Shown: positions 1-32,354, counted from the first letter of the stretch. The stretch: 64,000 bases of DNA from Amphiscolops sp. MND2022 (GCA_964187785.1 OZ076409.1:41170001-41234000); one strand, 5' to 3'. The notes: generated by a model from the letters alone, not told the origin. Program-made: numbers and translations.

Positions 1-2688
1 AGTATTTCTCCGACAGTTGCCTCTCCAATGGTTTCTAGTAGCTCGTCCGTTTGCGTGGGGGTCAGCGAAAACTCGGAAGTTAGCACTTCAAGGTTCCATC
101 CCAGACCTAGACTGGTACAGAAGGCTTCCAATGGACAATTGAGCTCTCGAGCTACTTCTGCTAGAGTCCTGGTAGCAAACCTAGTCTTGTACCAATAGGC
201 GTGAGTGGTAGCTGCGGCGTCGACCTCGGCCTTCAGATTGGTTGCTTCAATTGCCACGATGCACCGCAGTCCTACAGACAGCTTCACGGGCTCGATTCCT
301 GAGGCGAAGTGGATCTGTGGGATTGTCCTCTCAACGGTGCGCGCTGCAGGCCATGCACCGATTTGTTTTGTCAGTTCGGCTAACTCTGCACGCACTGGGA
401 TTTCTTTGTCCTTTCGCATCAGCCAATTGTACCGACGAACAGCCTCTCGTTCGGTCACATTTGACTCTCGGGCGATGCGGTTGCCTTCAAGGTCGAAGGC
501 CATTCTGCCCATCCGCATTCCATGATCATAGAGGAGAGCGTCGTCAATGGTTAGCTGGGCATTTCCCGAGCGTTCTATAGCAACGAGCGCTCTAGATACA
601 GCGGCAAAGAAGGCTGGATACGATAAGGTATCTGGGCGCAGGTCCTCTCGGTCGACACGCAAGTTTGGTGCACAGATAGCGAATTCGACTCTGCGCGCCT
701 TGCATAACTCCAGCAGGATGTAGACGAACTGCTGCAGACTTCGTGGCCAGTACATAAATCCTGGTGGGGATACAAAGAGCGCGAGCGCTCCCAGACGACC
801 CCAAAGGATCCCTGCGGCACGTTCCATTGCACCGACAACCTCATTTACTAGGGCTGCAATGTCTCCAGGTCGTCGGAAATTGGACATTATGGCGTCTAGG
901 TCACGCAGCAACCCTTCGCAAGCCATGTGATCCAGAAGATTGGCAAGGATCACGCGCTGTGGGGGTGGCTCCTTCTGTGATCCTCTTAGGTTTGGATCGT
1001 ATATGGCTCCAACCATCTTAGCGATCTCAGCGAAGCGAGACAGGGGCATAGTCAGTACCAGCACGTCAGGCATCAAGTTGTCAATAGGCAGATCACTCCG
1101 GCAGGTAGAATCAACCGCCATGCAGTAGCTATGCTTTCCATAGGGGTTTCAGAGATCTCAAGTTGCGGGCGTAGCGGGCGTTCGCTTCCCATGTCTCACC
1201 TTCTCGCAACACATATCGTGCGGGGAATTGCTCGGTAATGTTATGTTGCAGGGGTGCCATGTAATCGTTAGTTGTCGTGGGCAGCTGCTCTCGAGTACGC
1301 TGTTCCCAAGCCTGCTCCGACATATCTGCGTCACGGGGGCGCAGCGAACGTGTAACCTGCGCCGGTATTGTGGTTCGATTGATTTCCTTTTGCTCCGTCT
1401 CAGTGGGAGGGGCCCTTTTCTTTATGGCGCATTGACTGGGGTAGAGATGCTCAGCCGCCATCCAAATGCGTTTGCTATCATTTGCGACTACTGAACCGGA
1501 TACGTCATCAGATGGAGGGAGGAAGGCTGGAGGGCGGGCCTCCTCCACCGTCTCAGGTATCTCCAGGGACATATCTATTGGATTCGTGCCCGAGGGCACA
1601 GAGCTCACTTCCGAGCCTGCGTCCGGATCTCCATACTGCTCGATTGCGTCCGCTAGAGACATCTGAGGCGCGCCTCGGCCTAGATGACCCACTCGGTATG
1701 GAGGCCTAGGGATGACTACTCTTTTCAGCTGGGGTCGAGGTACATCAGCGCGCTTGTCGGGAGGGGGACGACTAGTCGGGCTCTCGGTTACTGAGCCAGC
1801 TGGGGTGACTGAGGCAGTTTCTTCGGTTAGTCGCTTTCTCCCGGCTTCTTCTCATGTGCCAGTAGCAGCGCGTGCGCTGTTGCTTGGTCCAGCAGCAATT
1901 TCCACATCCATAGATGCCGTCTCGACTAAGGGAGCAGGGGGGTCACAGCCCGAGGGCTGAACAGCAGCTTGCAGATAAGTGGCTAGTCCAGGGATTCTCT
2001 GCTCTACGGCACGGACAAAATCGGAGGAATTCGGATAGTTGGCCACTGCTTGTAATGCCACAATTACGGCCTGTTCGCTGGTACTCCTTCCAGTTAGCTC
2101 TGGGTTAGGTATGGGTGGCAACCGGGACCCCGAGGGCTCCCGATCAGAGACTGGTGCACTAGTAGTGGTTTGCAGTACCATGTGTGGCGCTCGGTATGAG
2201 GTCCCAAAGGCAGGTGAACTGGAATAGGTTGGCGTCATTGGTACTGGTTTTGGTGCTGGTGGGGGCAATGCGACCATCTGAGGTGGTGGCATCGTTGCAA
2301 CGCTGACAGGCACCATACACAGGGAGGCTTCTTGCTCGAATCTCGTGCCCTGGCTGGGCCCAAGCATTGTGGTAGAGCGCTCATCCAAGAATTGATGCGT
2401 CAAATCGTGGCCATACCACGCATTGTTTTGGCAGGTTAGCGTGCGACGGTAAGCAGCTACTTCCGTCACCAGAGACACAGATACACCTGGCAGCGTCTGC
2501 ATCGTATCTAGTTGAGTGAGCAGGGCGGCCACGCCCGCTACCGCTAACGATGGAAGGCCGTTCCTCAGTCGTTCTTCTACATATTGGACTTGATTAGTCC
2601 TCTGCGCTCGCGCAGGCAATTCTTGAGACCTATTGCTATGAGGTCCCTTCCTGGGAATAGGCACCGTGTTGTTGGGGTAATAAGCCAT
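1..2688 (-). pseudogene. Extra ORF in env position (>890 codons): Pro-rich N-terminus plus degenerate SGNH-hydrolase-like domain; runs off the left edge
   Basis: ORFs 1852-2688 and 1129-1692 share a frame and are separated only by an in-frame TGA at 1852-1854. A 1-nt frameshift near 1135 leads into a stop-free frame from 1121 to 3 (MAVDSTCRSDLPIDNLMPDVLVLTMPLSR...VILANLLDHM...LFVSPPG...DLRPDTLSY...). Confidence 0.75.
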
Positions 2689-2700
2689 TATATCATAGGT

Positions 2701-2720
2701 CTAAAAAGGATTACCGTTAG
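2701..2720 (-). promoter_or_regulatory. Candidate branch point and splice acceptor for the extra ORF
   Basis: The minus strand reads CTAAC-ggtaat-CCTTTTTAG, 12 nt upstream of the ATG at 2688. Confidence 0.45.
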
Positions 2721-2975
2721 GCTTACCAGGTGCATTGTGGGGAGAGCTTAGGGCTCATCATCCAGTTACAATGGTACAAAGATGGCTCCATAAGGGAACC
2801 GCAACAGGTTTAAATTGTAGTTCAACTAACTAACTAGAACATAAAGATAGGAGTTATTTAACGATACGTTACAAGGTAATCATTCCATGGGATAGTTTAA
2901 GACTTCCTCCCAGACATAACAATTACCGGGGTGGATAAATTAAATAGGGATCAACAGAAAAGAGTTTTGGGCACG

Positions 2976-3450
2976 CTACTCCGGCCCTATGCTCAGAATG
3001 GACACGTACACGCGGTTATGCAGCACCACGTGAATGCCAGTGCCCTCAAGCAAATTCGTTAGGGTATGGTACAGGTTTACCAATGAGAGGGCGGGTCGCT
3101 CTGGATCCAGTATAGGTAGGTGGACCCTCGTGGATCCTTTCTCTATCAAACGCTGTATCAAGTGCGTCATACAACGTAGGTAATCGTCGGTGGGCAGCGG
3201 CGCACGCTGGTTTGCTCTAATTATCAGCAAGTGAATACTCTGATTTGGGTTTGGGTTGATATCAGGGGGAATGGTGAGAATCTCTCCCACCTTGGGGCGT
3301 AGGGAGAACACATTCTCCTTGCCACATTCTCGTAGCACGTACCGTAGGGCGGCTGAGTTGGTCTCTAGGTCAGCGGGACACGCTAACACCATATCACCTT
3401 CTACTTGTAGAAAATCTGTCACATCATATGAGAGGTGCTCTGTTGGGGCT
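2976..3450 (-). CDS. Macrodomain copy 2 (TARG1/OARD1-like), probable frameshifted C-terminus of Pol
   Basis: HLSYDVTDFLQVEGDMVLACPADL...LRPKVGEIL...IHLLIIR...PTDDYLRCMTHL...VHLPIL...LLEGTGIHVVLH follows the order of the TARG1-type macro motifs. Confidence 0.65.
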
Positions 3451-4710
3451 GGATGCAGAATCCCCGGTTAGATAATCTCTCTCCCGGCCCATTGTCGGCA
3501 GGTAAGCATACGCGGGGCGTACGCCCCTGGATTGCAGCCAGGTCTTGCCACACCGAGCGTGGCATCGCTCGATTATCACTGCTCGCCCTGACCCATGTGT
3601 CTAGGGCGCTCAAAGCGGCTTTTGGGGGAAGCGGAATCTCAAAAGTATGAGTCCACTCGTCCAGCAATCTAATGCGAGGATAATTGGTGAAACAAGTGAT
3701 GATTAGTTCCAACGACCACTCGAATTTCACTTTGCCACGATACCAGTCTATAATGTGGAAGCAAAGTATCAAGTCCGCAGTAGTGAGGGTCCTCAGACCT
3801 TCCAAGCAGGACAGTAGGTGCAGTGGTTCCACTATTGCCTCCACTCGTGGAGCAGTAACCAGCAACCACCAGTGCGGTGCTGGGCTGTATACTCCGCCCG
3901 GGTCCACGTGAATTCCGTATTTGTCACAGAGAAGATCAGCGGTGATGCATCGGACCATTTGCACAGGTTCCCGCTCAAAGTTGAAGGGTCCTAACGCAAT
4001 ATTGCTGGGTACTGGGGGCATCACCGTAGCGAGGGTAAACTCTAACCCTTTTCCGTCGCTAGTCCACTCCTTGAATCGAGGACATGGAGCTTTTGCTACT
4101 CCAGGTGATGATAACTTCTCCAGAATAGTATCCACGGGATGGTCTCCGTATCGTTCCAGGGAGGAATAAGTCTTTTCAGCTCTCACCGTAAGGCGATGTA
4201 CTAGATTTTCTCCCCGCTCCGGAGGAACTCCCCGGGCTCCAGTGGGAACCCTCCGGTTCTCATTGACGGCTAGCAAGCAGACACAGTCTCGCAGCCCACA
4301 GGTCCCGCATTTGTAGCGTGGCTGCCGCCTGCTTCTCAACTGGTATCGAGGGACTTCAGAAGTCTCGGTCGGCATTGCTGTTTCCGATGGCATTGTTGTC
4401 ATTGTTTCCTTCTTCCTCGTTCTTGCCTTCGCTCTGACCAGCCGTTTTCGCGTTTCGGGTGGTCTCCCCCTCCCCCTTTTGAGAGAAGGAGCGGTCTCCG
4501 TTCCGGGCAATGTCGTGGGAAGAGTAGGCACATTGGACTGAGCGTCGTCATCCTCGGTGGCGGACTTCGAAGGGAGGGAAGGAGCGGCCGGCCAAATGAG
4601 ATAGTTATTGAGGAAACTCGTCAGTGATGGATTTGTCAGTAATGGGGCCGATGTTCCCAATAATGAGGGCTGTTTTTCGGGAGAAGATATTTGTGGTGAC
4701 GGAGAGCGCG
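3419..4710 (-). CDS. Pol C-terminal extension: low-complexity region, AT-hook, Cys cluster, macrodomain copy 1
   Basis: Continues Pol across a frameshift at the GC run near 4705. KRGRGRPP at ~4457-4480, CGTCGLRDCVC at ~4278-4310, and VRCITADL...WLLVTAPR...LLSCLEGLR...LELIITCF at ~3655-4000. Confidence 0.7.
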
Positions 4711-7595
4711 CGCTCATGGTCTGAGAATAGTTGAGGTAGATGATGGGTAGGTGATATTGATTGATCTGAAGGGGGTTGGGGGACTTCGGGTTCCCCACGA
4801 TCAGCATCAACGGGATCAGGAGGTACCGGTAACATGATTTCGGATAGCTCATCGTCAGTGCCCGAGGTGGAGTAGTCGAACTGCTGGTAGTGCATGCGGG
4901 AACCTCCAGCACGCAACTTTGTGCGCAGACGGGTATCCATCCAATGATGCTTGCGCGAAGGCAAGGATATGTCAGATGCTTCTGAAAGTAGTTGTTCAGT
5001 TTTATATGAAGGCTGAGACTTATCGTCGTCAACCACATCAATAGAACGTTCAGGGTCAGGGACTATGAGTACCACTATTTCGCCGCTGTCCGCTTGCGCG
5101 GTGGTGAGCTCAAGGGGCCCACTGTGATGAGGTTTCAGGCGCTCAAAATGAACCTTTTGGCCTGTGTCCAACACGTAGACACGTCCTTCTTGAAAGACCT
5201 GTACTACTTTGTGCGGGCCACGCCAGGCGCGCATCAGTTTGGGGGAGCCTTTTTGCGGCACATAGCGGCAAAAAACCCAGACAAGCTCTCCTGGCTGGTA
5301 GGCTCGTGCCCGAATAGCACGATCATTATTCAATTTTTGGCGTAATTGGGCCTGGTGCGTATTGCGCCGGACCAAGTCGTGAATTTCTTGTTGGCGAGCC
5401 AACACATGATCCACATATGCCTCATGCGTATCAAAGGACTTGGCTGCAAATTCAGGGTACAAAAAGGTGAGGGGGATTGCTTTCTCAACACCCCTAGTCA
5501 ACATGTAGGGCGAGAAGCCTGTAGTGGCGTGCCTGGTAGAATTATAGGCACCGATCACTTCATCTAAGCATTGGTCCCAGTCGCGCATGCGGCGCGAGCA
5601 AAAGACTCGCAACAAGGTTAAGAGGGTGCGGTTTTGCCGTTCCACCAAACCTTGAGTTGGTGGATGTCCGGCGGTGGAGGTCACTTTAGTGACGTGAGCT
5701 GCCTTTAGGAACTCATTAGAGACTTCAGCAGTGAGGTTTGGAGCATTGTCTGATTGCATGCGAGTGGGGGTGCCGTGGCGGGCAAACCATTTCTGCAGCA
5801 GCAATCGTGAGGTGGTCACTGCGTCATAGTCGTGGTGACTACAAGGGACTGCCTCTGCAAATTTAGAGAAATGGTCTATGATGACCAAAATGCCGGTGTT
5901 GTTATCGTCAGAGGGGCAGATTTTTAAGTGGTCATACTGGACCAACTCGTTGAAATAGCCTCTCTGAATGTTTTTCAGTTGAAATCGTACGTCACCAGGC
6001 TTGTCACGTACTTGTTGGCAGGTGAGGCACTGGCCGACGTATCGACCGACGCTGCGCCGTATGCCGGGCCAAGTGTGGCGCTCTTGAATTCGAGCAACCA
6101 CTTTTGAGATACCTTGGTGTCCCATGGCGTCGTGCGCACGGAACAGAATTTCATGTTGATACAGCTGAGGCATTATGATCATGCACGGACGTTCGTGCAA
6201 TGGGCGTTGGGTGGGTGAGTATTGCACGCAAAGGACATCATTCTTGTTTATGAACAAGAATTCCTTTTTCTGGCGAAAATAGTTACGTGCGAATTCACGC
6301 ACGTTCTCGGGAAACACATCGTTATCTAGGGATTCACACTGCACGAGCTTTTTCAGTGCTAGCACATGGACGTCGCGGTTTTGGGCTAAGACCAAATCCT
6401 TGATCCCATGTACGGTATGAGTGTGTTCATGGAGCTCGGTGTCAATGTCCTTGAGGGCCATGATCGACTCGCGCACGCCACAAGGAGAATTCTGTAGCAT
6501 GGCGTTATTCGTTCCCGCCACAGAATAGATAGTGCGAGAGGGGACATTTACTGCATGCGTTGGCAGCAGGTAATCCTCGCTCGCCTCGGTGGTGACGTCT
6601 ATCCAGTCTTCAGGATAGTCTGGGTAGAAGACCTCATGCTTTTGCAGCACGGGTGGAGGCTTGGGCGGTAGAGGTGCGGCTAGCGCTTTTGCCTGTCGTT
6701 CTCGCTTGTTCGGTCGTTGCACACGGCGAAGCACACGAAGTGCTTGGTCAGGAGCCTTAGGCTCCAAGTTCTGCAGATGTGGTGGTAGGTCAGGATGATT
6801 TGGAATTATTCGACCTTGCAGGTCGAACCAGGGGGCTACGGGGAGGTTGTCGAATTCCTCGGCCGAGAGAAAATTCCAACGCTCTCCTGTAGCTGGCAGC
6901 TGCGCAAGCTGCTTTTCTCGGCATCGATAATCGTTGGGTCGTTTGCTCAAGCCATCAGCATTGCGGTGTTGAGATCGCGGTCTGTGTTCCACACGAAAGT
7001 GATACCTGTCCAGCGTCATGATCCAACGTCCAATCAATGCTTGGTCTGTGGAGTAGGTTTTCAACCAGGATAGGGCTTGATTATCGACTCTCAGGGTGAA
7101 CTTTTGGGGGCAAAGGTAGCTGTGGTATTTCAGGATGAAGTAGTAGGCTGCAAACATTTCCAGTTTGGGTGCCCCATATTTGGCTTGGGTGGTGGTTAAT
7201 TTCTTGCTGCCGTATATGATCGGTCGCAGGCGTCGCTCTCCTGGAGCTCCTTGCCACTGGTGTAGGATACCGGAAATGGCAACGGCGCTGGCATCGGTGT
7301 CCAGCACAAACTCTCCTTCGGAATCAGGCTGCGCGAGCGCAGTCGCCTCGATCATTGCTTTCTTGATCTCGTTGAAGGCCTTTTGTTGTTCAGGGCCCCA
7401 TGCAAACGTGGCATTCAGTCCAATAACGGCGTGGAGGGGCGCAACCAGCTTGGCATTCCATGGGATAAATTCACGATAATATATAGCGAATCACAAAAAA
7501 CTTTGCATCTCTGTCTTGTTGCGAGGGATGTCCCAGTCGCGCAGTTTGGCAACAGCTTTCGGGTCCGGTTTGACACTTTCTGCGGAGACTACGCG
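4605..7595 (-). CDS. pol: Pol: RT thumb (frameshifted), RNase H, integrase
   Basis: RNase H motifs LDTDAS, KLEMFA, VDNQAL and NADGLS. Integrase motifs H-x4-H...CLTC, YDHL, SDNA, GLVERQN and WRGPH (GPY/F). Frameshifts near 7596 and 7495. Confidence 0.95.
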
Positions 7596-10500
7596 TCACA
7601 GATATTTGATTTCTGGTTTCACGAAGTCGCATTTGGCTACGCGCATCTTGAAGCCAGCCTCGCGAAGGCATTCAAAGACCTCGCGCAGACGCGCCATGTG
7701 ATCTTCCACAGTTTCCGTTGCTATAACTATGTCGTCGATGTATGCCATGACCATGCTGCCTTTGCGATTAACCATTTTTTGTAGCGCTCGCGCTATTGCT
7801 CGCTGGAAGATGGCTGATGCATTGCACAAGCCGAATGGCATTCTTCGCCATTCGAAGAGTCCCAACTCACAGGCAAAAGCTGTCTTGTGGCGGTCCGCCT
7901 TTCGCAAAGGAATTTGCCAGAAAGCCCAGGCAAGATCTATGCTAGTATAGATCTTTGCATTGCCCAGTCGCGCCAGGCTTTCGTCGATGCGGGGCAGGGG
8001 GTAGGCATCCTTAATGGTTACTTCATTCAGCGGTCGGAAGTCACAGCAAAAACGCAACTCCCCGCTTTTCTTTTTTACCATTACGATACCACTTGCCCAA
8101 GGGGACAGTGAGGGTTGTATCATCCCTAAGGCCAGTAGGCTCCGAACCTCCTGGTTGGCTCGTTCAGCCTTTTCGGGGGACATTCTGCGAGCACCTTCAC
8201 GGTGCGGTACAGCCCCAGGCTCTACCTCTATCGTGTGTTTAGCAATGGTACAGCGGCCAATATCCGCCTTACGCTTCATGAATAGGTCATCAAACTCGTT
8301 AAGAATGTTGTCCAAGGACTCGCAGGCGCTAGCGCCCCAGAGTTTTTTAACTTCTTGCAATTGAGAATCGGGCCCATGGATCGGGGCCAATAGGTCCGGA
8401 TCGGTGCGCTTAAGAATCTCGCGCTCCGAAAGCCCCGCTTCACTTGGATCCGTCGAAGACAAAAACTCAAATTCAGATGAAGAAGTCAACTCAGAAGCAG
8501 TGGATAGATTCATTTCACTGTACACTTTATAAACAAAATTTGCTCGGCTGTTGTCGGCTTCAGTTTTGTGGTCAGTTTCGGCAGTAGCATCCAGATTTTG
8601 GGGCACAGCCTGGTATACTAAAGACACAGGCACTACCGTGCCCAGGTGGGCACCACATCGTACACGCTGCTGGTTGCTGGTGAGGTTTATAAGACTCACA
8701 TACAATGTTCCTGTCTCACTGACAGTGGCCACGCTGTCCTCTAAAAAGATGGTATTTTGCAATGAGGGATCAGACAACGAGGCGTTAAGCGCCACGGTCT
8801 GGAATATTAATGGTTCAAGCGCGTCGGTGACAAGTTTAGCCTTTGCCACTGTACGCTCGAAAGGCTGTAGGACCAGGTCACTGTCCAGAGCAATGGGAGT
8901 AGTTAGCGAAGCATCACCTACCTGGGTGTGTGCATGATGCCAGACGGGCTTCACTGGTGCTCGCACCACTATCTTCATGGAGGTTAGGTCTACCAGGACT
9001 TGGTAGGAACGGAGGAAGTTTCGACCCAGCAGAAAGTCCTCCACACCCATTGCGTCATCTACCACGACAAAATTGGTTTCGGGTTCGTACCCTCCCAACT
9101 GGGAGCGTACCTGCTCAGCCAACCCGAAAGTCTTTATTGTCTTCCCATTGGCAGCGTACAAATCAATTTGATAGGGTTTCAGGACCGCACCGGTCCGTGC
9201 AGCTACCCGGTTAAAGGCGGAGAAGGTTAGTATGGACACCCCGGAACCAGTATCCACCAAGCCTCGCAGTGGGATAGGTGCCGCATGGGGCACCACAAAG
9301 GAGACAACAAGCGACGCACGCTCATCTATCCGCGCTTCCCCGGTGGGTTCTTGGTGGTTGATATTATAGCATTTCAGCTCTTGAGGTCCCAAGCATAAGC
9401 CGGGTGGGAATACATCTACCACCACACAGGCCTCGAACTTCACGTCCACGCCGTCCATCGTTGCACAAACTGGTACTGGCGAGTATGTAGTCAGGGTCTC
9501 CGACTCTCCAGGGACGTACCACTGTTTTGGGCGGGGCAACTCCATCCGGTTATAGAGGACAGATAGCTCAACCCAGAGTTTCGCAAAGGTTAGCGTTGGT
9601 CTACGCACCTGCTCGGCTGCCAGCATCAGATGAATCGAGATCAACGTTCTCCCTTGCGGATCGAACGTGGTGGGCTCCAAGCACGTTTGAATCTGCTTTG
9701 TTCCGCATGTGACTATCAGTGGGGGATGAAACGCTGGAGGTTCCGCTGGGTGCAGCATTAACACGCGATCATCCTCCAGGGCTACAGTGTGGGCGGCCAC
9801 ACCAGCGGATTCCACCTCGGCCCATCGATTGTAGGCCAATTCATCGTTAGGCCTTGGAGCTTGAGAATGCTCACCGCAGGGGACATCCACATGGTCATAG
9901 ACTCCACAGTGCGCACACTGATGAATGCCTGGATAATTCTCCAACACGCCATCAGTTACGTCTTCAGCAGTGACTTTCACGCCTTCTGGCTCGGGAGCTG
10001 CTACTGGTTTGCGAGCCTGATCGCGGGTGGGACAGTCCCGGGCAAAATGCCCAGCTTGACCGCAATTGAAGCATGCGCCAACGGGTAGGCGTGCCGCAGG
10101 CTGCGCTGCTGCCTGATTTGGCGGGGCATTGCTCGCCGGTGGGGGAGGCAATACTCCTTGTGGTAACACCATTTTGTTGGGAGGTAGTGGCGCGAAGGGA
10201 TGAAGTCTAGACCTCATTGCTAGCCTGGGGTCATAGCGTTGAGGGAATTGGTTGGGTTTGGGACGATTGCGCTGCAATTGGCGGGTGGTGAAGCGAAGGG
10301 ATTCCACCGTAGGTGGTTCGGTCAGGAAGACTTCCGAGGCATACACTATAGCAAGTTCCCGCCTCAGCGCTGGGTCTCGTACGCCTTCCATGAAGCGCTG
10401 GAGGATTTCGTAGCGCTTGGTATTGATTGTCTCTTGCGGGAATCCTTGACTTCTAAGACCCTCTAGAGCGTCTAAAAACTGCATCCAGTCTTCTTTCTCA

Positions 10501-12344
10501 TGTTGAATGCGGCTCTGGAAAGCTTGTCGTACTTGCATACGATTTCCTCCAGCACCAAAGCGGCTGGATAACAATTCAAACGCCTTCTCGGGGGTGTCGC
10601 GTTCGGATTCTGCTTTGTTAATGATGTAGTTGCGAGCTTCACCTTCAAGGTGACCGATGATGCTCCAGGCCTGGTCCTCGGCTGAGACCTTGGTTTGCGT
10701 TCTCTTCAGGTATCTCTGCATAATAAGGATCCACCCATCAATGGATCCGTCTTTGGAGCCGCGATAAACATTGGGTCTCGCCTGAGCTAAGTCTCTACCG
10801 GCGAGTAAAGGCGCCAACTCTTTTGACATCGCCTTTGATATGGCGGCCGTGAATCTCAGCTGCTCAGGGGATATGGCTTCTCCTTCTTCGACCTTAGCTT
10901 CCCCCTCACGCGTCCTGTCATGACTACCAAGAGTGGCTTGTATTGACAGGTCAGCGATTTCGTCCTTCTTGCGAGTGTTGCTAGCACAGGGAGTGCCCGA
11001 GGGCAGTCCATGATCGGCTGACAAGTCTGCGGTCAAGTATAAGGAGTCTGGTCCTGACATCGAAATAGGGGCAGTTGCAAACGTTGCTCCCTCGGTTTGA
11101 GAACCTAGGATTGCCTTGGTGTTGGATAAGTCGACTTCAACCGAAGAATCAAGATAGATTGTTGACATCGGATCCACGCCTTGATCACGAGTAGTGCTCT
11201 GGGTTGCAGAGGGCATTGATGACTCTGCTGAGTCGTGATGTCCTCTCATCTGCACTCGTGCAGGCTTGCGCTCTGCATCAGGCGTGGCTATCACCAAATT
11301 TCCGGCTACTCCTTCATCTTTCCGGGGCGCAGGTACTGCCGGCGGTACTGCCGGCCTGGAAGTGCTAGGCTTCAACGCACTTGGCAGTTCCGGTTTCACT
11401 ACTTGGCTCGGGTACGTCGGCTCCGAGACACGGACTGAGCCTCCGTTCCGCACACCTCCACTTGCACTGGGCTGCCGCGGGAGTGACCTCTCACGCCTCA
11501 TGACATCAATGGCATTGAGTACTGTGTGCATCTGATTGCTTAAGTCGTTGATCTGCGTTTCCACGCGCAACTCGCGAGCCATCAACATGTCATTCATCTC
11601 TCCCATCCGGTGACCCAATGTGTCCACTCGAGCATTTTGTACGTTCTGCGCGGTACGCAATTGATCGCTGACTTGCAGGCCCTCACGCATCGTCGTCTGC
11701 ATCACTTTAATATTTTCCACGATGGCAAGATGTTGCTCATTGCACTCAGCACGAGTGCTGGCCAGACCTGCTAGAGCCCGTTGGGTTTCGGCTTGGGCGT
11801 CCAATAGCGCTGCCTTGTATACCGAAGACCGTTGCGATGAGGCCAATGAACCTGTCATACTCCTAACACGGGATGCCTCCTGACGTGGTTCGCCTACATG
11901 CAGTGTGGGTGGTCGCACCTTCTTGTGCTTTCCGTAGGCACAGACCCGAGTAGGTCCTCGGGTAGTCCCGAGTCCTCGCGGTCTCGCGTAACTCATGCCT
12001 CCCACATAAGTGAGATCCTGCTCCATGTCGGTCTGTGAGCCGAGTTGTGCCTCTCCAGCCGGGGGTGCGCGCGAGCACCCTTCCTCAGCCACCAATTCAT
12101 CGGTTGCATTCGAATTGGGCCAGCCCTCCTCCACTTCATTGGTTCTATCGCGGCAGGTTTCGTCGACCCACTGCTCGGTTCGACGCGAATTCTCGGAAAC
12201 ACTTGATTTCTCGGAGGGAGGAACCATAGCGGCCAACTCCTCTTTTCGCAGTTGTTCGATAGTGACTTCATCAGACATGTCGTCTGAAAAACGCGAACCA
12301 TCTATCGTGACCCACGATTGTGAACATGTATGGGGCACCGCCAT
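7596..12344 (-). CDS. gag-pol: Gag-protease-RT polyprotein in a single frame
   Basis: Zinc knuckles CFNCGQAGHFARDC (10032-10073) and CAHCGVYDHVDVPC (9876-9917). Protease LVDTGSG (9246-9254) and FLLGRNFL. RT motifs LRFCCDFRPLN, YPLPRID, MPFGLCNA and YIDD (7731-7742). Confidence 0.96.
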   Translation of the reverse strand: MAVPHTCSQSWVTIDGSRFSDDMSDEVTIEQLRKEELAAMVPPSEKSSVSENSRRTEQWVDETCRDRTNEVEEGWPNSNATDELVAEEGCSRAPPAGEAQLGSQTDMEQDLTYVGGMSYARPRGLGTTRGPTRVCAYGKHKKVRPPTLHVGEPRQEASRVRSMTGSLASSQRSSVYKAALLDAQAETQRALAGLASTRAECNEQHLAIVENIKVMQTTMREGLQVSDQLRTAQNVQNARVDTLGHRMGEMNDMLMARELRVETQINDLSNQMHTVLNAIDVMRRERSLPRQPSASGGVRNGGSVRVSEPTYPSQVVKPELPSALKPSTSRPAVPPAVPAPRKDEGVAGNLVIATPDAERKPARVQMRGHHDSAESSMPSATQSTTRDQGVDPMSTIYLDSSVEVDLSNTKAILGSQTEGATFATAPISMSGPDSLYLTADLSADHGLPSGTPCASNTRKKDEIADLSIQATLGSHDRTREGEAKVEEGEAISPEQLRFTAAISKAMSKELAPLLAGRDLAQARPNVYRGSKDGSIDGWILIMQRYLKRTQTKVSAEDQAWSIIGHLEGEARNYIINKAESERDTPEKAFELLSSRFGAGGNRMQVRQAFQSRIQHEKEDWMQFLDALEGLRSQGFPQETINTKRYEILQRFMEGVRDPALRRELAIVYASEVFLTEPPTVESLRFTTRQLQRNRPKPNQFPQRYDPRLAMRSRLHPFAPLPPNKMVLPQGVLPPPPASNAPPNQAAAQPAARLPVGACFNCGQAGHFARDCPTRDQARKPVAAPEPEGVKVTAEDVTDGVLENYPGIHQCAHCGVYDHVDVPCGEHSQAPRPNDELAYNRWAEVESAGVAAHTVALEDDRVLMLHPAEPPAFHPPLIVTCGTKQIQTCLEPTTFDPQGRTLISIHLMLAAEQVRRPTLTFAKLWVELSVLYNRMELPRPKQWYVPGESETLTTYSPVPVCATMDGVDVKFEACVVVDVFPPGLCLGPQELKCYNINHQEPTGEARIDERASLVVSFVVPHAAPIPLRGLVDTGSGVSILTFSAFNRVAARTGAVLKPYQIDLYAANGKTIKTFGLAEQVRSQLGGYEPETNFVVVDDAMGVEDFLLGRNFLRSYQVLVDLTSMKIVVRAPVKPVWHHAHTQVGDASLTTPIALDSDLVLQPFERTVAKAKLVTDALEPLIFQTVALNASLSDPSLQNTIFLEDSVATVSETGTLYVSLINLTSNQQRVRCGAHLGTVVPVSLVYQAVPQNLDATAETDHKTEADNSRANFVYKVYSEMNLSTASELTSSSEFEFLSSTDPSEAGLSEREILKRTDPDLLAPIHGPDSQLQEVKKLWGASACESLDNILNEFDDLFMKRKADIGRCTIAKHTIEVEPGAVPHREGARRMSPEKAERANQEVRSLLALGMIQPSLSPWASGIVMVKKKSGELRFCCDFRPLNEVTIKDAYPLPRIDESLARLGNAKIYTSIDLAWAFWQIPLRKADRHKTAFACELGLFEWRRMPFGLCNASAIFQRAIARALQKMVNRKGSMVMAYIDDIVIATETVEDHMARLREVFECLREAGFKMRVAKCDFVKPEIKYL

Positions 12345-13576
12345 CAGTTCGGTGGCCAACGCGTTTTATTAATAGCGATCGAGTTACCGCTCACGATTAC
12401 TCGGAAGACTCAAATTGGGTCGCCGAACGCACCAGGGTCTTCAATTCGAGGCTGATCCCTTGGTCGTCCCGGTGAGCACTTAAGAAATTTAATGTTACTC
12501 AATGTCCTAGATTTTTCGAAACACGCTCTAGAGCTTGTAGGCTGTTCAAATTTGCACAGCGTTTTCCCACAAGCACACTGGGCCAGAAAATCAACCTGGT
12601 TTGGGGCAAAAAGTCTCCAGTCACTCACAGGAAGAATTTCAAAGAATTTTAGGATTTTTCAAAATTCGCACGACAACACTCAAGAGGCTCGTGTGTGCGC
12701 TAGAAGCGCTGTATCAAGCCCAAAATTGACCAGCAGATCTCAGGTACACGTAGGTTTACGAAAATGAACACAGTTTTCAGCTGCGCCCCTCCTACACAGT
12801 TTCACCTAGGTACAGACGTGCGGTACCACTACGTACCGAACTACACTGTTTTTCACGTCTTTTTCAAGATTGCGGTCCACTGGAAAGAGCTAGCAAGCTC
12901 AAATTCTCTGCAGCAACGTAGGAACTAGCACAGGTTACGATGGTGGGCTGCAATATAGCTCCACCCGTCGGCTAAGGTGCCTGGGTTACTCGGAAAAATT
13001 AAGAAAAAAACTGCCTTTTTGGACACCTTTTTGGGTGCCTCGTTTTTCCTATTTTCTCGACAAGTATCACACAGATCGGCACCAAACTTGGTAGTTTATG
13101 CCAGTGGGCACCTACAATGCCACTGATAAGGTCGAATTGAAGCGCGAGCGCTTACTTGAGGTTTCGACCTACTATGTACGTTGTACACGAAAAAACACAG
13201 TTTTTGACGACCTTTTTTCACAAATTGACCAAGAGGATCACCTCAGAAAATGATACGGCGGGCTAAATGGGACCAACGTGTTGCCCCACTATCCGTAGCA
13301 CTGGGATAAACCCTCAATTGGTGGTGCCCACTAGGTGTAAGGCACTGACAGTCCAGCAGTTTTGGGTTTTTTTGGCTTTTATGCTTTTCTGAAGTCGAAA
13401 CGTCAGAGAGCTTTTCTCGACTTTGGTGAGCGATACGCTCACCAAATTTTCGGCACTAACGTTAATTTTTGTGGTGGTTACGAAAATGCAACCAATTTTT
13501 GGCTAGGGTTCAGGAATCGATGACCCAACCCTAGCTCAGAGACAGTCCAGTTTTGTGGAAAATTGATCAAATTCAG

Positions 13577-13860
13577 TGCGTTTTTCCACTTTTCTCAGCA
13601 CTGAAAAGGAATTTTTGCACGCGGTTTTCACCACAATGCGTTATTTTTACTATAAAAACAGGAAAGGAGAGCGCGCGGGCTCCCAGGTCTCGAAAACAAT
13701 GGGTGTCCCAGAGGCTTTAATGATGCACTCTGGCACTCCTGAAACTGGCCAAAAATCAAGGTTTTTCAACTTTTCTCAACACTGAAAAGGAATTTTTACA
13801 CGCGGTTTTCACCACGATGCGTTGTCTTTGCTGCTAAAATCGAAAATGAGAGCGCTCAAG
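13577..13860. repeat. Diverged direct duplication inside the retrotransposon leader
   Basis: tttttccactttt ctcagcactgaaaaggaatttttgcacgcggttttcaccacaatgcgtt recurs ~183 nt downstream. Confidence 0.75.
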
Positions 13861-15034
13861 CCCGCTCTCTTCGAATAAGCTTCGCTCTGGGTGTTTTCGG
13901 TTAATGCACTTTCTCTGCCCGAAAATGCCAAAAATCACAAGTTTTTCGCACTGTATCAGCCCCAGGCTGCCTGAGTCCGCTACAAAAGTTGCAATTAGTA
14001 TCCTGAGGGTCAACTACACTTGGGTCAGTGCCGTACACTGTCGTTTTGCACTTCCATACTCGCGTACGTTCACATTTTAGGTGCCTTTTTGGCCAAATAT
14101 CCACTTTTTCCACATTTTCGGCATCAAATTGGCACTTTCATCACAATCAAAGGCTTCAACTTCACCTTTCGTGCCTCGTGCCGGCTTTCTCGAGCCTTGC
14201 AGCTGCTTTTTCAAAACTTTCCACCAAGCTTTCCTGGTTTCTTTGAGCACTAGTGCTCGAAACCAAGAAAAACACCAAAAAAAACGCAAAAATGAGGTTT
14301 TTTTCTCCAAGTGCTATCTTTTTCACAGAAAAGCACTTCGTAGGGTGTCGTTACATTTATAGTAGAACGTCACTGACCTGCACCAACGATTCTCCATCGA
14401 AAAAGGTGTATTTTCAAATTTTTCGCCAACCATACTCCATCTGAGCGACACATCTGGTCATAGGGGGTGCATCTTCACCACGTTATTTCTCCACATCTAG
14501 ACCAGGCAGAAACACGCGGGTAGGACCATTAGCACCGTCTGTCGTTGCACTTGCTGTCCACCAAAAACCATGCCTTTAGGACGTCTCCACGAGAAATGGG
14601 AATAGGAAGTAGGCAACACCAGATTTGTCCCCTCCTTCGCCTCGCTGGAGTATGGTCAACCATCCATCCGTTACCATCTTGCATGGCATAAAATGGCTGA
14701 AAATAGCTCAAAAAACCTGTTAGACACCCGTAGCCACGTGCTACGGTCCTCTGCACCTGCAAAAAGGTACCCGCTGATGGGTACACAACACATCACACAT
14801 AAAGAGCGATTTCCTTCTAAAATGCCCAAAAATACCATTTTCACACCTGAAAACACGTTTTCTTCGGCATTTTCTCTGATTCAACGCCTCTCCCAGTTCC
14901 AGTAAGACGTAATACGACTAAAAAAATGGTAAAAATCTGCTTCTCTCTCCTGTCCAGAGTCGAAAACGGGCTTGGCGCTGATCACCAGGGGGCCAGATCT
15001 TTTAAAAACCGCTAGGGAAAGCTTCCCAAGACGA

Positions 15035-15051
15035 TCCCTCTGTGGTCGCCA
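15035..15051 (-). promoter_or_regulatory. Primer-binding site, tRNA-Arg(TCG)-like
   Basis: The minus strand reads TGGCGACCACAGAGGGA, close to the complement of the 3' end of animal tRNA-Arg(TCG) (recalled, not searched). Confidence 0.65.
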
Positions 15052-15066
15052 AAAAATGAGTTTCTA

Positions 15067-15796
15067 TGTAACGATAAGCGCTGGCGCTTGAACCGCAACG
15101 TAGAGTGGAGGAACTAGAACAGCGAATATAATCTGGGACCTAGATCTCCGCGGCTCTAGCTCATATTCCCTCCGAAGGAGCCAGTCCCAAGGTGGGGGAA
15201 CCGTCTTGTAGGATACTCTCTGACCTGGTCCTAGTCTGTAACTGCTAAAAGTAACAGGCATCTTGCAAGACTCAAGACCACTGCTCAACTAGCCTTTAAA
15301 AATCGGGCTGAAAATCGATGAAGGTTGAACCGTAATATTGGAGAATCTGATAAAATCGCCAAATTGGATAAACTGATGTTAAATAACAGCTCTCGAGCAC
15401 ATTAATTTATCACATCGAAAAATACAACAAGAAATCAAGAGTTCAGAGTCATTTGATGGAAATTGACCTCAGCTTCCCAGCGCTAGCGCTAGTTGCCACA
15501 CAGTATACCGCAGGGATACTCAGGCGAACATCTGGAACACTGGTTTTCTCTACATGTAGTAATGGATATCTCCTAGAGATGGACACAATACCGTGCTCTG
15601 TATGCGTTGGGGACGTCTTTTTAGTCGTCTCCGGTGCTTGTTCGTCGCGAGCGGCGATTTCTGCTTTTCTGGGGTGCTTTTTCTGGCAGGTACTTCGTCT
15701 TGAGCATGTTTGAGTGCCACGTCAAATTTGAACGAATTTTTGACAAAATTTCTAAACATGTCGGTTGATATTGCTGTACCAGAGCTTGCCGTTACA
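15067..15796 (-). repeat. Putative 5' LTR (~730 bp)
   Basis: Bounded by the perfect inverted termini TGTAACG...CGTTACA and adjacent to the PBS. The partner LTR is not in the window. Confidence 0.6.
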
Positions 15797-16079
15797 GTGC
15801 TTTATCTCGTCCTCGGTGGTCAACCGGAGTTGTCCCAGAAATTCAGAGGCTCAATGCGTCTCCTGTCGTGGTAATTCAAGGCTAACATCTAAAGGCTTTC
15901 TTCCTAGGGTAGATGTTTGCGTTGTCACCGGATCTCAATTTACCGGTGCTTCCATTTCTTCCGTCTGTGGTGCAAATGCGGGCAATATTATAAACCTTAA
16001 ACTTATAAACCTCAAACTTATTAAGTTTGGTTAGAAGTATATCTGTTTGGATATGAGTCCTTCATGTAACTTCCTGCTC

Positions 16080-17000: not shown

Positions 17001-18684
17001 TTTAACAAGTGTTCAAATCAGAGTGACCTTTTCTTTCATTACCCGGATGTTTACTATTCCGTTTTGTGTTCCGTCTAATCAATAACGTGTCAACGTTATT
17101 TGCTTTGTCTTTACACAGTAGACGATACTTTTCACCACTTAAGTATAAACTAGAATTGACGTCTGCGATAAAATTGTTCGATTCAGCTAAGTCCGACTTG
17201 ATCTCTTACAACGATTTTTGCTACGTTTTACTTTTGGTCGAATATATTCTAAGATCCACCCAACAAAAACCAACCATCACAAATCTGCAAAGGTTTTCCT
17301 CGAAGACTATCAATCGTAAAGGCCTGAAAATTGGCACACGTATACCTGAGCTGTTATGCTACTTGTCTATAAAAATCGAATCGATTTGGGCCCCTAGTCC
17401 CAAACTATTAGCACCGGAAGAGCACTAGGTCGACCCCCATACGGACGGGTCGTTGTAAGTGGGAATAAGTAACATTATAAGGAAATTGATAGCCTATAGG
17501 TTATTAGGCCGTTTGCGTATACTTTCGAAACCCTTCGAAGAGCGTAGAAGGAGCACCGATCCTATGTGAACAATCCACGAATGTTATGTACATCGTCATC
17601 AGTCTATTCGAGGATCACAAAACTTACCTGAGAGGTTCACCTACCAACACTGAGTATTGTTTGTTCAAGGCAAGCGGGACCGGACGCGCTTTTTGTAACC
17701 TCTGACTTGTATTACCTCAAACAAACCGTGATAACGAGTGTAGTCGATCACTAACGTGAATGAACCTATATTTGTGACCCATTCGGGGGTGATCGCCTAA
17801 AGTAAACAAATCATACGCAATTCATGTTACTCGGGAACCATCTACCCTAGAATCATATAACTTGACATGTAGCAACTTTGGACGAGTATAACTAACTTCG
17901 AGGTCACCGGGGTACCTGAAGGTCATGTCAGAAGCGACTTCCGAAAAGATAGGAAAATTTATTATAAACCATAGAAATCAGTGATAATTTATGCACATCA
18001 GTCAGGCGAAAATTTTCGAAATGCATCGCACTTGGAACGACTGAAAAGTACTGCTCACACGTAGCGAACATGTTAACCATGTGATTGAAGGTCATTGAGC
18101 ACTTCTACCGACATTAGAAACGTCTTGGGCAGTTTAAATTTTTTTAGAATGAGGACTTTTGACATGGTGGTGAATTATTTGCCGTTGGCGGCAAAGAATC
18201 TTTGGTCAACGTTTAACTAGTGTAATGACATCAACTTGGGTCAATTCACTCAATCCTCTCGTCTAGATGTAGAGGCCATATTCTCAGGATTTGTTTCATT
18301 TGTTTCCGAAACCGTATTCCCAGGTACTCTGTCAGACAGCTTATCAATTTTGGAAGATAGGTTTTCTATCATCTTGAGAATCTCTCTTTGATTTGTTTCG
18401 TTTTCTTTTTTATGCTGGCAGATTTCTCAACCTTTTCACAGATCTCGCAAAAATCTTTGTCTGAAACGCTCGCAACGTTTCCAGGTCTCAAACCCGCAGC
18501 CTCAGTCTAGCGAACTAGTTGGAGAATCCTTTCTGGCTTTCCTTTTGGATGATCTTTCAGGCATTTTAGTTTTACAGTATGTGACTTTGTACTGGAAAAA
18601 TTAGCTTGAAGATTTCTGTTAGAATGTGAAGAAAATTGAGAGTTTAAAAGGTTTTTTGATTACCAATAACGGATCAAAAAGCAA

Positions 18685-19340
18685 ATGTTTCGCAAAAAGT
18701 ATCAGCTGAAATCTATTCCAAACCAACAGATATCTATACTTTCAGCTCGCCTGAGCGGGGGAAATTGCACACACCATTCACGCCTCGTTCAGCCCGGCGT
18801 CCTTCCGAGGCAGGGAAACCGGAAGTTCAGTTCCACTTTGTCGATTTCAGATTCTCAGTGTGTTCATCCTTTGCTAGGAAAGGAAGCTTCCACTTCCTTT
18901 CTGAGTTGCGACTCCGCTTCCCTTTGCCTCGAATTCCCGTCTTTTCGAGACGCCGAAGCTGAACGTGACAATGAAAGGATATGGATGAATCACAAAATTA
19001 CACCTGACAAGGAAAAGAAAACAAAATAATGACACTCAAAATTTACAGAGCGCAAAATGTCTCTTGATTTAATTAGAAAATCTTCGAAACACTGCACAAT
19101 TTTAAGATTAACTCGAAACACTGGATTTTTAAAGCTTTACGTAGCAGAATTGATGAGTACTGAAATCCTAGTCCCAGGCTGTGGTCTGGGACGTCCACTA
19201 AATTAAACATTGCTTACATTGAAAATGGGACTTAGAATTGCATGTAACTCACGATCGTCATATACAAATACGCGTATTAAACTATACTTTCATTTGGAAA
19301 AAAAAAGAAATCATTCGTATCACTAACATTAAATATTCGT
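18685..19340 (+). repeat. Diverged dispersed partial copy of the 1.1-kb tandem unit
   Basis: Shares gcagggaaaccggaagttcagttcc, ctgagttgcgactcc and gtcccaggctgtgg blocks with 21.9-23.6 kb. Confidence 0.9.
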
Positions 19341-19922
19341 TTGGCCTGGGATGTATCCCCTGGCCGAATTATTTGATCACTGCATTTTCCACAGTATTCT
19401 TGTAATATTTGCAACAGCTACATATTCGACATTGTTTCAACAATTGTTTGAACGGAACAAATTAGTTTACATGAATTCGATAGAAACACATTTTGGATTG
19501 AATTAGAATGAAGTAAATATAGCTCGTTGAGGCCGCTTTCCAGACCGGCGTCTCGCAGTGTTCATTTGAGGCCGGCTGCCAGACCGCAGTTTTGCTGTTA
19601 AATTTTTCGGGGCGCTTGCTAGGCCGCATATTTCCATTGTTATTTATTATATAGCACTGTATTAAATACTATTAACTGTACGGTATCTTCATATAGGTTG
19701 GTACATGATATGTATATAAAACTGTATGTAATTATACGAATACTGGTGAGTGATTTCTTTGATTATTATATTACTTTAGCGCCGTTATTTTAGGTTATTA
19801 TTAAAAGATAGCACAACGAACAGTTACATATTGATTTTTTGTTGTTTTTTCTTCAATTGTTTTCCATTACTTCACTTCCCATTTTGTCCTCTGTAAGCTG
19901 GGTTTTTTGTGTTACAATACTT

Positions 19923-19951
19923 ACAGCTCAGCTGGGGCTGTGGCAACTAGT
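19923..19951 (+). mobile_element. Possible Helitron-type 3' terminus
   Basis: Hairpin ACAGCTC-agctg-GGGCTGT, followed 5 nt later by CTAG|T. Confidence 0.3.
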
Positions 19952-21470
19952 GGTGTTCGCCATGCCATAAAAGGAACATATAAACATCAAAGTAAATGCA
20001 TGCAAACTTAAGATACCGACGCCTAATATTGCAAATGCCCATTATGATAGTAAGTGAAGATGTAACCATCAGAAACACGTGCGATGAATAAACAAATTTG
20101 AGGCGGAATCGAAAGAGTATTTAATAGACAGTTTCGAGTTAGAGAGCTAGCAGAAAGTTGAGCATCGGGACGGGGGCAAGAAATTTGACATAGCTGAAAG
20201 AAATTGTCGTCGTAAGCTCCGGGAGTGAAAGTCCGGCACTTGTGCTTGAGCCATATTTGGCTGAATTGGACATTGCTTCTTCGATTGATGCATATTAGTA
20301 AGTTTGACTGATTTGAATTACTTAGTGTTATTTCTGTGATAAAGTGTTTTTATAATTCCATTACTTGAAGTTTTTGGAAAACGCGAGCTGATAGAGCAAA
20401 TCTGGCGAGAGAAATTGACAATAACTACAAAAGAGTTGGCTAACTCACCAAAACCTTTTTTCTTTTGAACTTCCAATTGGAACTTCCAAGCCCTCGAATT
20501 TGATTTTCTTAGACACCCCTATCATACACTGTTCAGGTCAATTGGTGGTATGACATCACTGCTTATCTTTATTTAGACGTCCTCGAGTCAACCACAGCTG
20601 TCATTCCACTACACTCTATCACCTTTTGCATGCATCTCTGCTTATCATTCGCGTTATATGAAGACGTAATTTAGGCTCCAGCGGCAAGTCGGCGAGCACT
20701 AGTTACGTCGAAGGAAAAACGCGAAAACGCAAAATGGGAAGAACGTCTAAAGCAAAGTCATATCTATTCCCTATCTTAAGACATTCAATTCTAGATGTTA
20801 TTTCTTTTGACAATTTTCCCAAAACACTTCTAATCATTCTTCCTTAGAAGGTATTAGTGCTCCTAATTCAGTCTACAGACGAAACTGCCTGCATTTGCGC
20901 CTATCGGTGCTTCTAAGAAACCTTTTAGTGCAACAAGATGGGAGTGGCATGAAGCTAAAGATGCGCGAAGTGCATTAATTGTTTGATAATTTTTCAAACT
21001 CACAGTTGAAAAGAAACGCAAAAATTTTTCAAAGAGTCAAGGATTCATTTTCGAAAAAATCTCAGTTTAACAATTCTGGTTTTTGGGCTTTAAAAGCTTT
21101 TTTCACTGAAAACATCAAAAAAGCGAAAACATTTTTGTGATAACAGTCATTCCCCGAAAAACACACAAACTTTCCATAAGTAACTTGCAAAGACAACAAA
21201 ACACTTAATCTGCAAAACATTATAATTTCAATGTCAAAAGTTAAAAAAAGAAATGTTGTAGTTTAGTAGTTATAACGTAATTATAACATCAGGACGATAG
21301 TAAAACCAACTATGGCTAGAATTTTTACGCATCCTCTTCGGTTTTAAAAATCAAAAGTGACACCTCCAAAAAATACGCTCATATACGTCGAATTTCATCA
21401 CAAAGTATCGAAAAATGCTATTCTTTAGATCTTTTCAGGCAAATTGACATAAATTTATGTCATTTGTCTT

Positions 21471-30976: not shown

Positions 30977-32354
30977 GTTAGATTCCTAGATTAAATACTA
31001 TTTGATAAACACTAGAAAATAAGGGGATTATTCAAAAGAAACCAATACACATGTCAAATAACTAACTTACATCAAGGTCAATCCGTTACCTTAAGTGACT
31101 CTCATGAGTATTGTTCTTTCAGCTCAAAGATCGTCGCCGTAAAAATACTTTCACAATTTTTCCCTCAAATGTTTCAAAATAATAAGGACTTCACCACGAA
31201 GACTTGAAACTACTGGGTATCGATTATTTGTTATACAGTTTTCTTCACAAAAATGCATTTATAAGCTTTTGTGATCTCAAAAAATCTAGCAACACAGCTT
31301 CAAGTCGGCCTTTGCTTGATCATTTGGCCGCAATAATGGTATCATAGCTCGCTATGGGGATATAGTAACCAAAAAGACGCTGGATTATAAAAGCAGGTGC
31401 TTAATCAGCGTCCACTGGTTAATTGGGTCAACAGTATTTTATTCTCCTTTCTGAAAACGTTTTCTGTTTTTGAACTTCACAAAGAGGCATACGGTAAAAA
31501 ACTATAAATCGTCACAGTAGACTTCATTTCTTAAAAAGCACTCTGATTTAAATCCCTGAGAATTAGAAACAACCTCGGGCAACCCATGGTCACATTTTCA
31601 CTAGGACTTCTTCAAAAATCATTCTGACTTCGCATCAGAATGAACTGTTTGGTTGGTTAAATGATGTTGAACTTACGTACACGTGCAGTGATATATAAGT
31701 GTTGACAATTCGCCCTTTGAGTGCTCTATGCCTTCAGGCTTTTTGAATGCAGCAGAAGAGATTGACAGGTCGCCTACTGTGTTCAAGTCAACAACAGTCA
31801 ACAAATCGCTCAACAGTGTACTTTTGGGACACTGGTGCTAAAAATAAAAAGAGCCGCAGGCTGTCGAAAGAATTAGGTGGTCACTTAAAAATCTACAATT
31901 GAATAATTACCTGTGACTGCACTTAGCATACAGGCATAAATAACCATTTCCCCCTGGCATGGATAACCATTTAACCCTGGCATGGCTAACCCTTAAATTA
32001 GAAAACCACTAATTTTTAACTGTCCCGGGTTGTCCTATCACGCAAATCATACTATGTTTCCATATATGGAAAGTAGCTGTCATACAAAAAACTTTTCATG
32101 TTCATGACATGACTTTAATGTTTTCAATTATGATCATCGTATTGATTGCCTGATTTCATATAACTAACTGTATGGCCCTTTTATGGAATACATGCTTTTT
32201 CAGTATGGCCCCTTCTATGAAACTCATGTTTACCAGTATGGCACTTCTATGGAACTCAAGTTTTTAGGAGTCGGAAAAAATTTTCGACTAATTATGCAAT
32301 CGTGCTGTTTTTTTTTGTTTTTTTTTCTCCCGACCTTTTCATGAAAATTTCAAA

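Follow-up and report, generated by a model that had tools for sequence, protein, structure and literature searches.

A decayed 19-kb Ty3/Gypsy-type element of Amphiscolops sp. with a predicted macrodomain at the end of Pol, an SGNH-fold second protein and a 3-bp target-site footprint

The element and its families

A stretch of 64,000 nucleotides from Amphiscolops sp. MND2022 (GCA_964187785.1 OZ076409.1:41170001-41234000, or G000:C1:41170001-41234000 in our numbering; hereafter 'the window') holds at its left end most of a long terminal repeat (LTR) retrotransposon on the minus strand. A preliminary description made from the window alone took this for one Gypsy element of more than 15.8 kb and perhaps of an undescribed lineage, and the size has been borne out. 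Leftward extension, a check proposed there, found both the 3' LTR, 3.1 kb left of the window, and a target-site duplication (TSD); the complete element runs from window position 15796 to -3092, 18,889 bp, and its LTRs are identical at 723 of 730 positions (99.0%). Its features are collected in Table 1; the labels PR1, PR2, M1 and M2, like the family letters A-F used below, were coined in this analysis.

Table 1. Features of the element, in window coordinates (PBS, primer-binding site; ORF, open reading frame)
Feature	Position	Strand	Remarks
5' LTR	15067..15796	-	730 bp, TGTAA..TTACA; 3-bp TSD CAC/CAC
LTR-PBS spacer	15052..15066	-	15 nt
PBS	15034..15051	-	18 nt, complementary to 3' end of host tRNA-Arg(TCG)
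Non-coding leader	12345..15033	-	2.7 kb, 24 upstream ATGs
Structured leader block	13334..13640	-	conserved across five families; strong folding
Gag	9800..12344	-	long N-terminal region, PNMA-like capsid region, CX2CX4HX4C knuckle at 10032-10073
PR1, possible degenerate retropepsin-like repeat	9336..9776	-	DPQG at 9651-9662; dN/dS ~0.03
PR2, canonical aspartic protease	8946..9335	-	DTGS at 9243-9254
Possible degenerate dUTPase-like domain	8595..8945	-	weak support
Reverse transcriptase (RT)	7401..8285	-	YIDD at 7731-7742, Ty3-like; stops at about 7597 and 7492
RNase H (RH)	7002..7400	-	in PR-RT-RH-IN order
Integrase (IN)	5205..6170	-	H2C2 finger, rve core, GPY/F-like GPH motif at 5205-5219
Pol extension	4020..5200	-	variable linker (frame break near 4620-4730), CxxCx4CxC cluster at 4277-4309, beta-rich unit
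M1, alpha/beta unit	3570..4012	-	possibly second degenerate macrodomain
M2, predicted TARG1/DarG-type macrodomain ending Pol	2976..3430	-	frame break near 3470 just before
Splice-acceptor-like motif CTAAC..TTTTAG	2701..2721	-	12 nt before ORF2 ATG
ORF2	1..2688, continuing left of window to about -1600	-	N-terminal third disordered; SGNH fold and helical region
Predicted SGNH-fold domain	550..1148	-	DS kept (1104-1115), NxxDH (927-941), R-P replacing H-P (630-644)
3' LTR (twin of 5' LTR)	-3092..-2363 (G000:C1:41166908-41167637)	-	730 bp

In copies whose frames are open, a single frame of about 3,200 aa carries Gag, PR1, PR2, the dUTPase-like unit, RT, RNase H, integrase, a Cys cluster and the macrodomain in that order. 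By its sequence the element is of Ty3/Gypsy type (Metaviridae): the protease (PR)-RT-RH-IN order, a gag with capsid and nucleocapsid, the CX2CX4HX4C knuckle, the GPY/F-like motif, TG..CA LTRs, an 18-nt tRNA PBS and a polypurine tract are all there, and Ty3 is the best match of the RT in PDB (E 1e-43). The RT scores 152 bits to Ty3, 98 to caulimovirus and 72 to foamy virus, which is a measure of similarity and not a tree. All six families have YIDD in the RT. The Gag capsid region gave a PNMA-like Pfam match below cut-off (E 0.005).

A doubled protease had been proposed, and its support is weak. PR2 is canonical; PR1 matches it at a profile E of 0.012 over 40 columns (six control pairs gave E 0.11-0.84) and keeps the Asp in 11 of 11 rows, but has lost the T-G that follows. 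The dUTPase-like fold also proposed there is weakly supported too, with a profile E of about 0.01 to a mixed reference, 0.35 to the host dUTPase and no Pfam match. A PR-dUTPase-like-RT arrangement would in any case not be novel, because a second Gypsy family in the same genome has it above the Pfam cut-off and rotifer elements have it too (PMC5408684; this and the other papers cited by PMC number, except PMC7879559 and PMC13524379, were available in part, and what we say of them holds for that part).

DNA searches returned 903 (ORF2 piece) and 2,212 (LTR) first-look candidates, which are not copy numbers. The 25 top-scoring copies, window copy included, were taken as the family A sample; they measure 16.9-21.3 kb, and the others are 95.3-97.3% identical to the window copy. 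Each module covers at least 80% of its own length in 22-24 of these 24 others. Furthermore, at least six families (A-F) are present at high copy number in the host genome with one common layout: a leader of 2.4-3.2 kb, one Gag-Pol of about 3,200 aa and a separate ORF2 of about 1,400-1,530 aa. The sister families are 18.5-20.1 kb long with LTRs of 714-746 bp; genome searches located C, D, E and F in G000, with best identities of 98-100%, and brought up copies of family B as well. Protein searches gave relatives, all from ENA, whose identities are 42-97% for ORF2, 37-95% for the Pol tail and 39-98% for the protease region, with no named close homolog among the 25, 58 and 51 matches respectively.

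None of the 25 family A copies is intact, with a median of 11 breaks and a minimum of four, and the window copy, described earlier as bearing few lesions, has five stops (one of them at a frameshift overhang) and three frameshifts by tblastn, at least seven frame breaks in all; it is broken into six frames. Uninterrupted Gag-Pol frames occur in two of three family B copies (3,193 aa) and two of five family F stretches (3,283 and 3,294 aa). The recent activity once argued from the scarcity of lesions is supported for the group on other grounds, namely LTR identities within copies of 97.4-99.9% in family A and 99.3-100% in nine of 10 measurable sister-family copies. Between natural copies of A and B, the ratio of nonsynonymous to synonymous divergence (dN/dS), a rough figure here, is 0.01-0.21 for every module with defined dS, and on these alignments all modules are under purifying selection.

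Between families, identity is 82-99% in RT and 30-83% in ORF2. The pairs B/D and C/E are 98-99% identical in RT and only about 52% and 80% identical, respectively, in ORF2, which suggests that 3' modules have recombined between families. Families A and B are 84-85% alike across LTR and leader (window 12464-15742) and 74.5% alike in the coding region. On G000:C6 a full element is preceded by three tandem units, each 2.66 kb long and made up of an LTR with the first 1.8 kb of leader, which suggests that recombination took place inside the leader.

Target-site footprint and primer-binding site

The two most distinctive traits of the lineage, a 3-bp TSD and a PBS set apart from the LTR, are absent from the preliminary description. 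The flanks of family A copies match over exactly 3 bp in 21 of 25 cases and over 4, 5 or 6 bp in none; the four misses are two tandem junctions and two copies with altered ends, and one of the matches (C6a) lies inside a tandem array and may be due to chance. Both ends were found in 10 of 19 sister-family stretches, nine of the 10 giving a 3-bp TSD, which brings the tally over all families to 30/35 for 3 bp and 0/35 for 4-6 bp. In a Gypsy family of this genome taken as control, five of five readable copies out of seven have 5-bp TSDs (four of them trimmed by script and the fifth read by eye), and a host-wide cause of the 3-bp footprint is thereby rejected. The lineage's termini, TGTA..ACA, are of the TG..CA type. 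LTR elements other than Troyka are said to make TSDs of 4-6 bp (PMC12440569), a trait typical of Metaviridae although it is not in the ICTV (international virus taxonomy committee) profile, and one which this lineage lacks; a TG..CA element with a 3-bp TSD is described nowhere in the literature searched.

The gap between LTR and PBS is 15 nt in family A and 15-16 nt in all 15 sister-family stretches with a PBS, whereas the PBS of the control family abuts the LTR (0 nt). By the standard mechanism of reverse transcription, the cDNA end would carry about 15 extra bases. The genome holds a tandem array of tRNA-Arg(TCG) genes, spaced at about 173 bp, on G000:C9 from about 57,537,000, and 256 matches genome-wide to the tRNA-Arg(TCG) 3' end that is complementary to the lineage's PBS.

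The 2.7-kb leader noticed earlier measures 2,708 nt from PBS to first Met and includes no ATG-initiated ORF of more than 55 aa. Its structured block is likely, to judge from sequence conservation and folding, a packaging or translation signal: the folding z-score is -6.0, matched by 0 of 200 shuffles, and 168 of 311 columns are invariant among nine copies of five families; covariation is modest, six of 64 pairs having changed on both sides. Rfam gave no match within window 1-16000. A 95-nt direct repeat (window 13580-13674 and 13761-13855, 85% identical) overlaps the start of this block. Four donor-like splice sites are conserved in the leader, among which none could be singled out.

Predicted folds of the Pol tail and ORF2

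From the GPH motif to its stop at 2976-2978, Pol continues for about 740 codons, somewhat more than the 600 or so first claimed, in three frames in the window copy. Of 28 rows, 26-28 retain the CxxCx4CxC cluster. A model of the tail built from 28 sequences (predicted local distance difference test, pLDDT, 69) has TARG1 as its best match (Foldseek E 3.9e-8; Z 16.6, root-mean-square deviation (rmsd) 2.7 over 141 residues), followed by DarG (Z 15.3) and Poa1p (Z 14.0), with identities to the three of 11-13%. The model hence confirms that Pol ends in a predicted fold of the TARG1/DarG macrodomain type. The macrodomain of the preliminary description is thus upheld as a fold and its link to RNA viruses is not, since these cellular and bacterial proteins are nearer (Z 14.0-16.6) than the macrodomains of alphaviruses (Z 11.0-11.3) or coronaviruses (Z 9.9 or less). 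M1 may be a second macrodomain, having a profile E of 0.018 to M2 and being covered by a tandem PARP14 macrodomain alignment at rmsd 17. Sequence-based searches with the Pol tail gave no match in Pfam, a single chance-level match in a profile search of PDB sequences, and only leads below 0.9 in an Atlas search, among them a Macro cluster at 0.85.

The catalytic residues of TARG1 are Lys84 and Asp125 (PMC5087735). In the Pol tail, with the aligned ranges taken as register, the Lys84 site is Arg in 23 of 23 rows and the Asp125 site Pro or Ser in 22 of 22, inside a near-invariant DPER loop whose residues are kept in 21-22 of 22; the position of the Gly-rich phosphate loop is acidic (DPE). On these alignments M2 is likely to be inactive.

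ORF2 measures about 1,430-1,440 aa where open; in the window copy a stop (1852-1854) and a frameshift (near 1130-1148) interrupt it, as does an early stop near -1444. A model of residues 400-1310 (124 sequences, pLDDT 67) indicates that ORF2 contains an SGNH fold: model residues 98-319 match SGNH hydrolases, best of all PAF acetylhydrolase (Z 11.1, rmsd 3.5 over 181 residues), and SGNH/GDSL-type hydrolase folds make up the 50 rows listed, the OSK domain of Oskar among them at Z 7.6. Given that this domain filled the structural match list, the helical and C-terminal parts were barely probed. No Foldseek match of the model to PDB or BFVD reached E 0.001, ORF2 had no match in Pfam or in profile searches of PDB sequences, and an Atlas search with the SGNH region returned nothing usable. 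The SGNH esterase of the preliminary description is accordingly retained as a fold and doubtful as an esterase, for only the Ser of S-G-N-H is kept. By motif register against a published block table (PMC10792757), Ser is present in 40 of 46 rows, the block II Gly in two of 53 and the block V His in one of 48, where Arg stands in 42; in block III a hydrophobic residue occupies the Asn position before Asp.

The view that the extra ORF does not resemble env is also supported. ORF2 has none of the errantivirus-type env traits (signal peptide, surface and transmembrane subunits, furin site): five of six frames profiled lack an N-terminal hydrophobic stretch (the sixth, from family E, runs from stop to stop and begins before its Met), and a hydropathy and motif scan found no conserved furin-like site. 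A branch-point and acceptor-like motif precedes the ORF2 ATG in families A, B and D and, more weakly, in C (a similarly placed AG-ending pyrimidine tract in B, C and D), suggesting that ORF2 is made from spliced RNA; family F has no acceptor close to the first Met, and the misplaced family E row of this alignment was disregarded. A profile search with ORF2 collected 636 clusters at E 0.001 or better, one of which, a divergent cluster, matches G000 at only 27-30%, and therefore relatives of ORF2 likely exist in other hosts. One homolog, P0209, comes from an 816-bp contig and was submitted under a Bacteroidota metagenome-assembled genome as a hypothetical protein; it is likely host DNA in a bacterial bin.

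Adaptors, enzymes or known elements

We consider it probable, without great confidence, that this is a decayed 19-kb Ty3/Gypsy-type element of a multi-family lineage with a 3-bp TSD, whose macrodomain and SGNH domain serve as non-enzymatic adaptors. Genomic RNA would be packaged through the structured leader block; reverse transcription from tRNA-Arg would yield a cDNA end whose extra bases, about 15, need trimming; and integrase would cut target DNA with a 3-base stagger. Chromoviruses carry a chromodomain at the end of Pol, behind integrase, and the Cys/macro tail, which sits in the analogous place, would likely serve as a tether between the integration complex and either chromatin or a host factor. 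The chromodomain of chromoviruses is mentioned in PMC12440569. ORF2 would likely come from spliced RNA, as env does, and would act within the cell as an adaptor that binds RNA or membranes, comparable with the non-catalytic SGNH domain of Oskar or, alternatively, with the esterase of some non-LTR ORF1 proteins. A wider claim, which we rate as possible rather than probable, is that of an as yet undescribed giant Gypsy clade whose 3-bp-stagger integrase arose independently of Troyka, with processing of about 15 bases at its cDNA ends, a new class of SGNH plus helical accessory proteins shared with elements of other hosts, and a macrodomain tail that steers integration.

Several points weigh against the adaptor account. 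Splicing, cDNA ends, tethering and RNA binding are inferred, not observed. The catalytic registers were read from motifs and from aligned ranges instead of a superposition at residue level, and missing residues do not prove a dead macrodomain, because the bacterial TARG1-class protein SCO6735 is without Lys84 and Asp125 and has been argued to work by a different mechanism (PMC5087735). In the ORF2 model about 180 residues fall below pLDDT 50, and ORF2 keeps, besides Ser, an NxxDH motif (His in 44 of 51 rows), which makes a rearranged active site possible. Its hydrophobic peaks, one or two near residues 900-1140 with Kyte-Doolittle (KD) values of 1.7-2.3, are moderate and could touch membranes. 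Finally, dS is 1.2-3.2, near saturation, and undefined for four modules, which is what makes the dN/dS ratios rough.

The precedent of SCO6735 also favours the strongest rival, in which the macrodomain(s) and the SGNH domain, their catalytic sites altered, still work as enzymes and strip host ADP-ribose marks or deacylate a host factor in counter-defence. Both predicted folds are confirmed, purifying selection is strong, the replacing residues are themselves invariant (SGNH Ser, Asn, Asp and His in 40/46 to 49/51 rows, beside the Arg and DPER positions), and ORF2 diverges far faster between families than RT. Nevertheless, we regard this as unlikely, though worth taking seriously: the site of the phosphate loop is acidic, S-G-N-H has by motif register lost three of its four residues, and the nearest folds are cellular or bacterial rather than viral. 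The counter-defence toolkit of the preliminary description, read as enzymatic, is not supported.

Transmission, the other role suggested there, would make ORF2 a non-env protein that carries particles from cell to cell through membranes. It has the env position behind an acceptor-like motif, the hydrophobic peaks and the view that SGNH esterases of non-LTR elements act in membrane transport (PMC5408684) on its side, but the lack of an N-terminal hydrophobic signal in five of six frames and of a conserved furin-like site, together with that of any viral fold match at E 0.001 or better, renders it improbable.

We see an equally small chance that the group is already catalogued, as an unpublished Gypsy family of Repbase or Dfam, or belongs to Troyka. 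The comparison set did not take in Repbase, Dfam or GyDB, and a 3-bp TSD is the hallmark of Troyka (PMC12440569); like Troyka and Kuafuorterviruses, the lineage also has a single Gag-Pol (PMC12440569, PMC11673190). Troyka elements, however, have CG..CG ends, LTRs of 100-400 bp and an internal region of at most 7.7 kb; their knuckle is CX2CX8-10HX4C, GPY/F is absent and the RT has I/V/L-ADD (PMC12440569). Here the ends are TG..CA, the LTRs about 730 bp and the internal region 17.4 kb, with CX2CX4HX4C, GPH and YIDD, and membership is rejected. As to the catalogues, the protein searches returned no named close homolog, and an entry would leave the undescribed traits standing.

That the extra parts are unrelated nested insertions, which the preliminary description held open, or an assembly artefact is suggested only by the six broken frames of the window copy and has a negligible probability, because the same modules recur in the same order in the other copies and in six families, in open single frames and under purifying selection.

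Other systems resemble the lineage in part. The ICTV profile of Metaviridae allows internal regions over 15 kb (PMC7879559), but Ty3/Gypsy elements differ in TSD length and in having neither a PBS 15-16 nt from the LTR, nor a polyprotein of about 3,200 aa ending in a macrodomain, nor a 1,400-aa non-env ORF2. The rotifer elements Vesta, Juno and TelKA have a dUTPase between PR and RT, as this lineage may, and some Vesta families have a GDSL/SGNH ORF3 behind pol; these ORF3s keep the invariant residues, whereas the SGNH fold here forms a single domain within a 1,400-aa protein and has three of the four replaced, and Pol here has a macrodomain tail. Macrodomains and target sites go unmentioned in the available part of PMC5408684. 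TARG1 (C6orf130), DarG and Poa1p are alike in fold, but here the Lys84 and Asp125 sites are replaced and the domain is fused to integrase. Fish epsilon-like endogenous retroviruses carry a macrodomain ORF on an LTR retroelement, as retroviruses with additional ORFs and not as a Gypsy Pol fusion (PMC4977317). Planarian Burro, at over 30 kb (PMC11410931), was compared by size only and is likewise giant. PMC13524379 makes no mention of macrodomains, dUTPase, SGNH or TSD.

Every module type has some retroelement precedent (PMC5408684, PMC4977317, PMC7879559). Not described in the literature searched, which did not take in Repbase, Dfam, GyDB or the Troyka/Kuafuorter supplements, are the combination of modules, the fusion of the macrodomain tail to integrase, a 3-bp TSD together with TG..CA ends, and a PBS set apart from the LTR; those supplements may hold related elements.

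Other repeats were seen in passing. A second large Gypsy family, on several contigs of G000 (L133-L153), is 15.9 kb long with 1.5-kb LTRs about 100% identical and a 5-bp TSD, a Gag of 604 aa, a Pol of about 1,730 aa with PR-dUTPase-like-RT, and, behind pol, about 6.5 kb in which no ORF reaches 300 aa. To the right of our element lie a 172-bp tandem repeat (four copies), an array of an approximately 180-bp repeat and repeated units of about 1.05-1.13 kb (window 32348-33038, 59291-60395, 18678-24121). Window 42001-46000, 4 kb with strong AT skew (0.25-0.41) and a flanking 183-nt direct repeat 4,218 bp apart, is possibly another mobile element.

LTR finders by default demand duplications of 4-6 bp, and this lineage would escape those that do. 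The 3-bp footprint is now taken as a marker of Troyka (PMC12440569), and a Gypsy group with TG..CA ends and the same footprint offers a natural comparison for what sets the stagger of integrase. The distant PBS leads to a testable prediction on the processing of cDNA ends. With several apparent pseudo-enzyme modules under selection and abundant copies in its host, the lineage would provide a test of whether retroelements recruit enzyme folds as adaptors.

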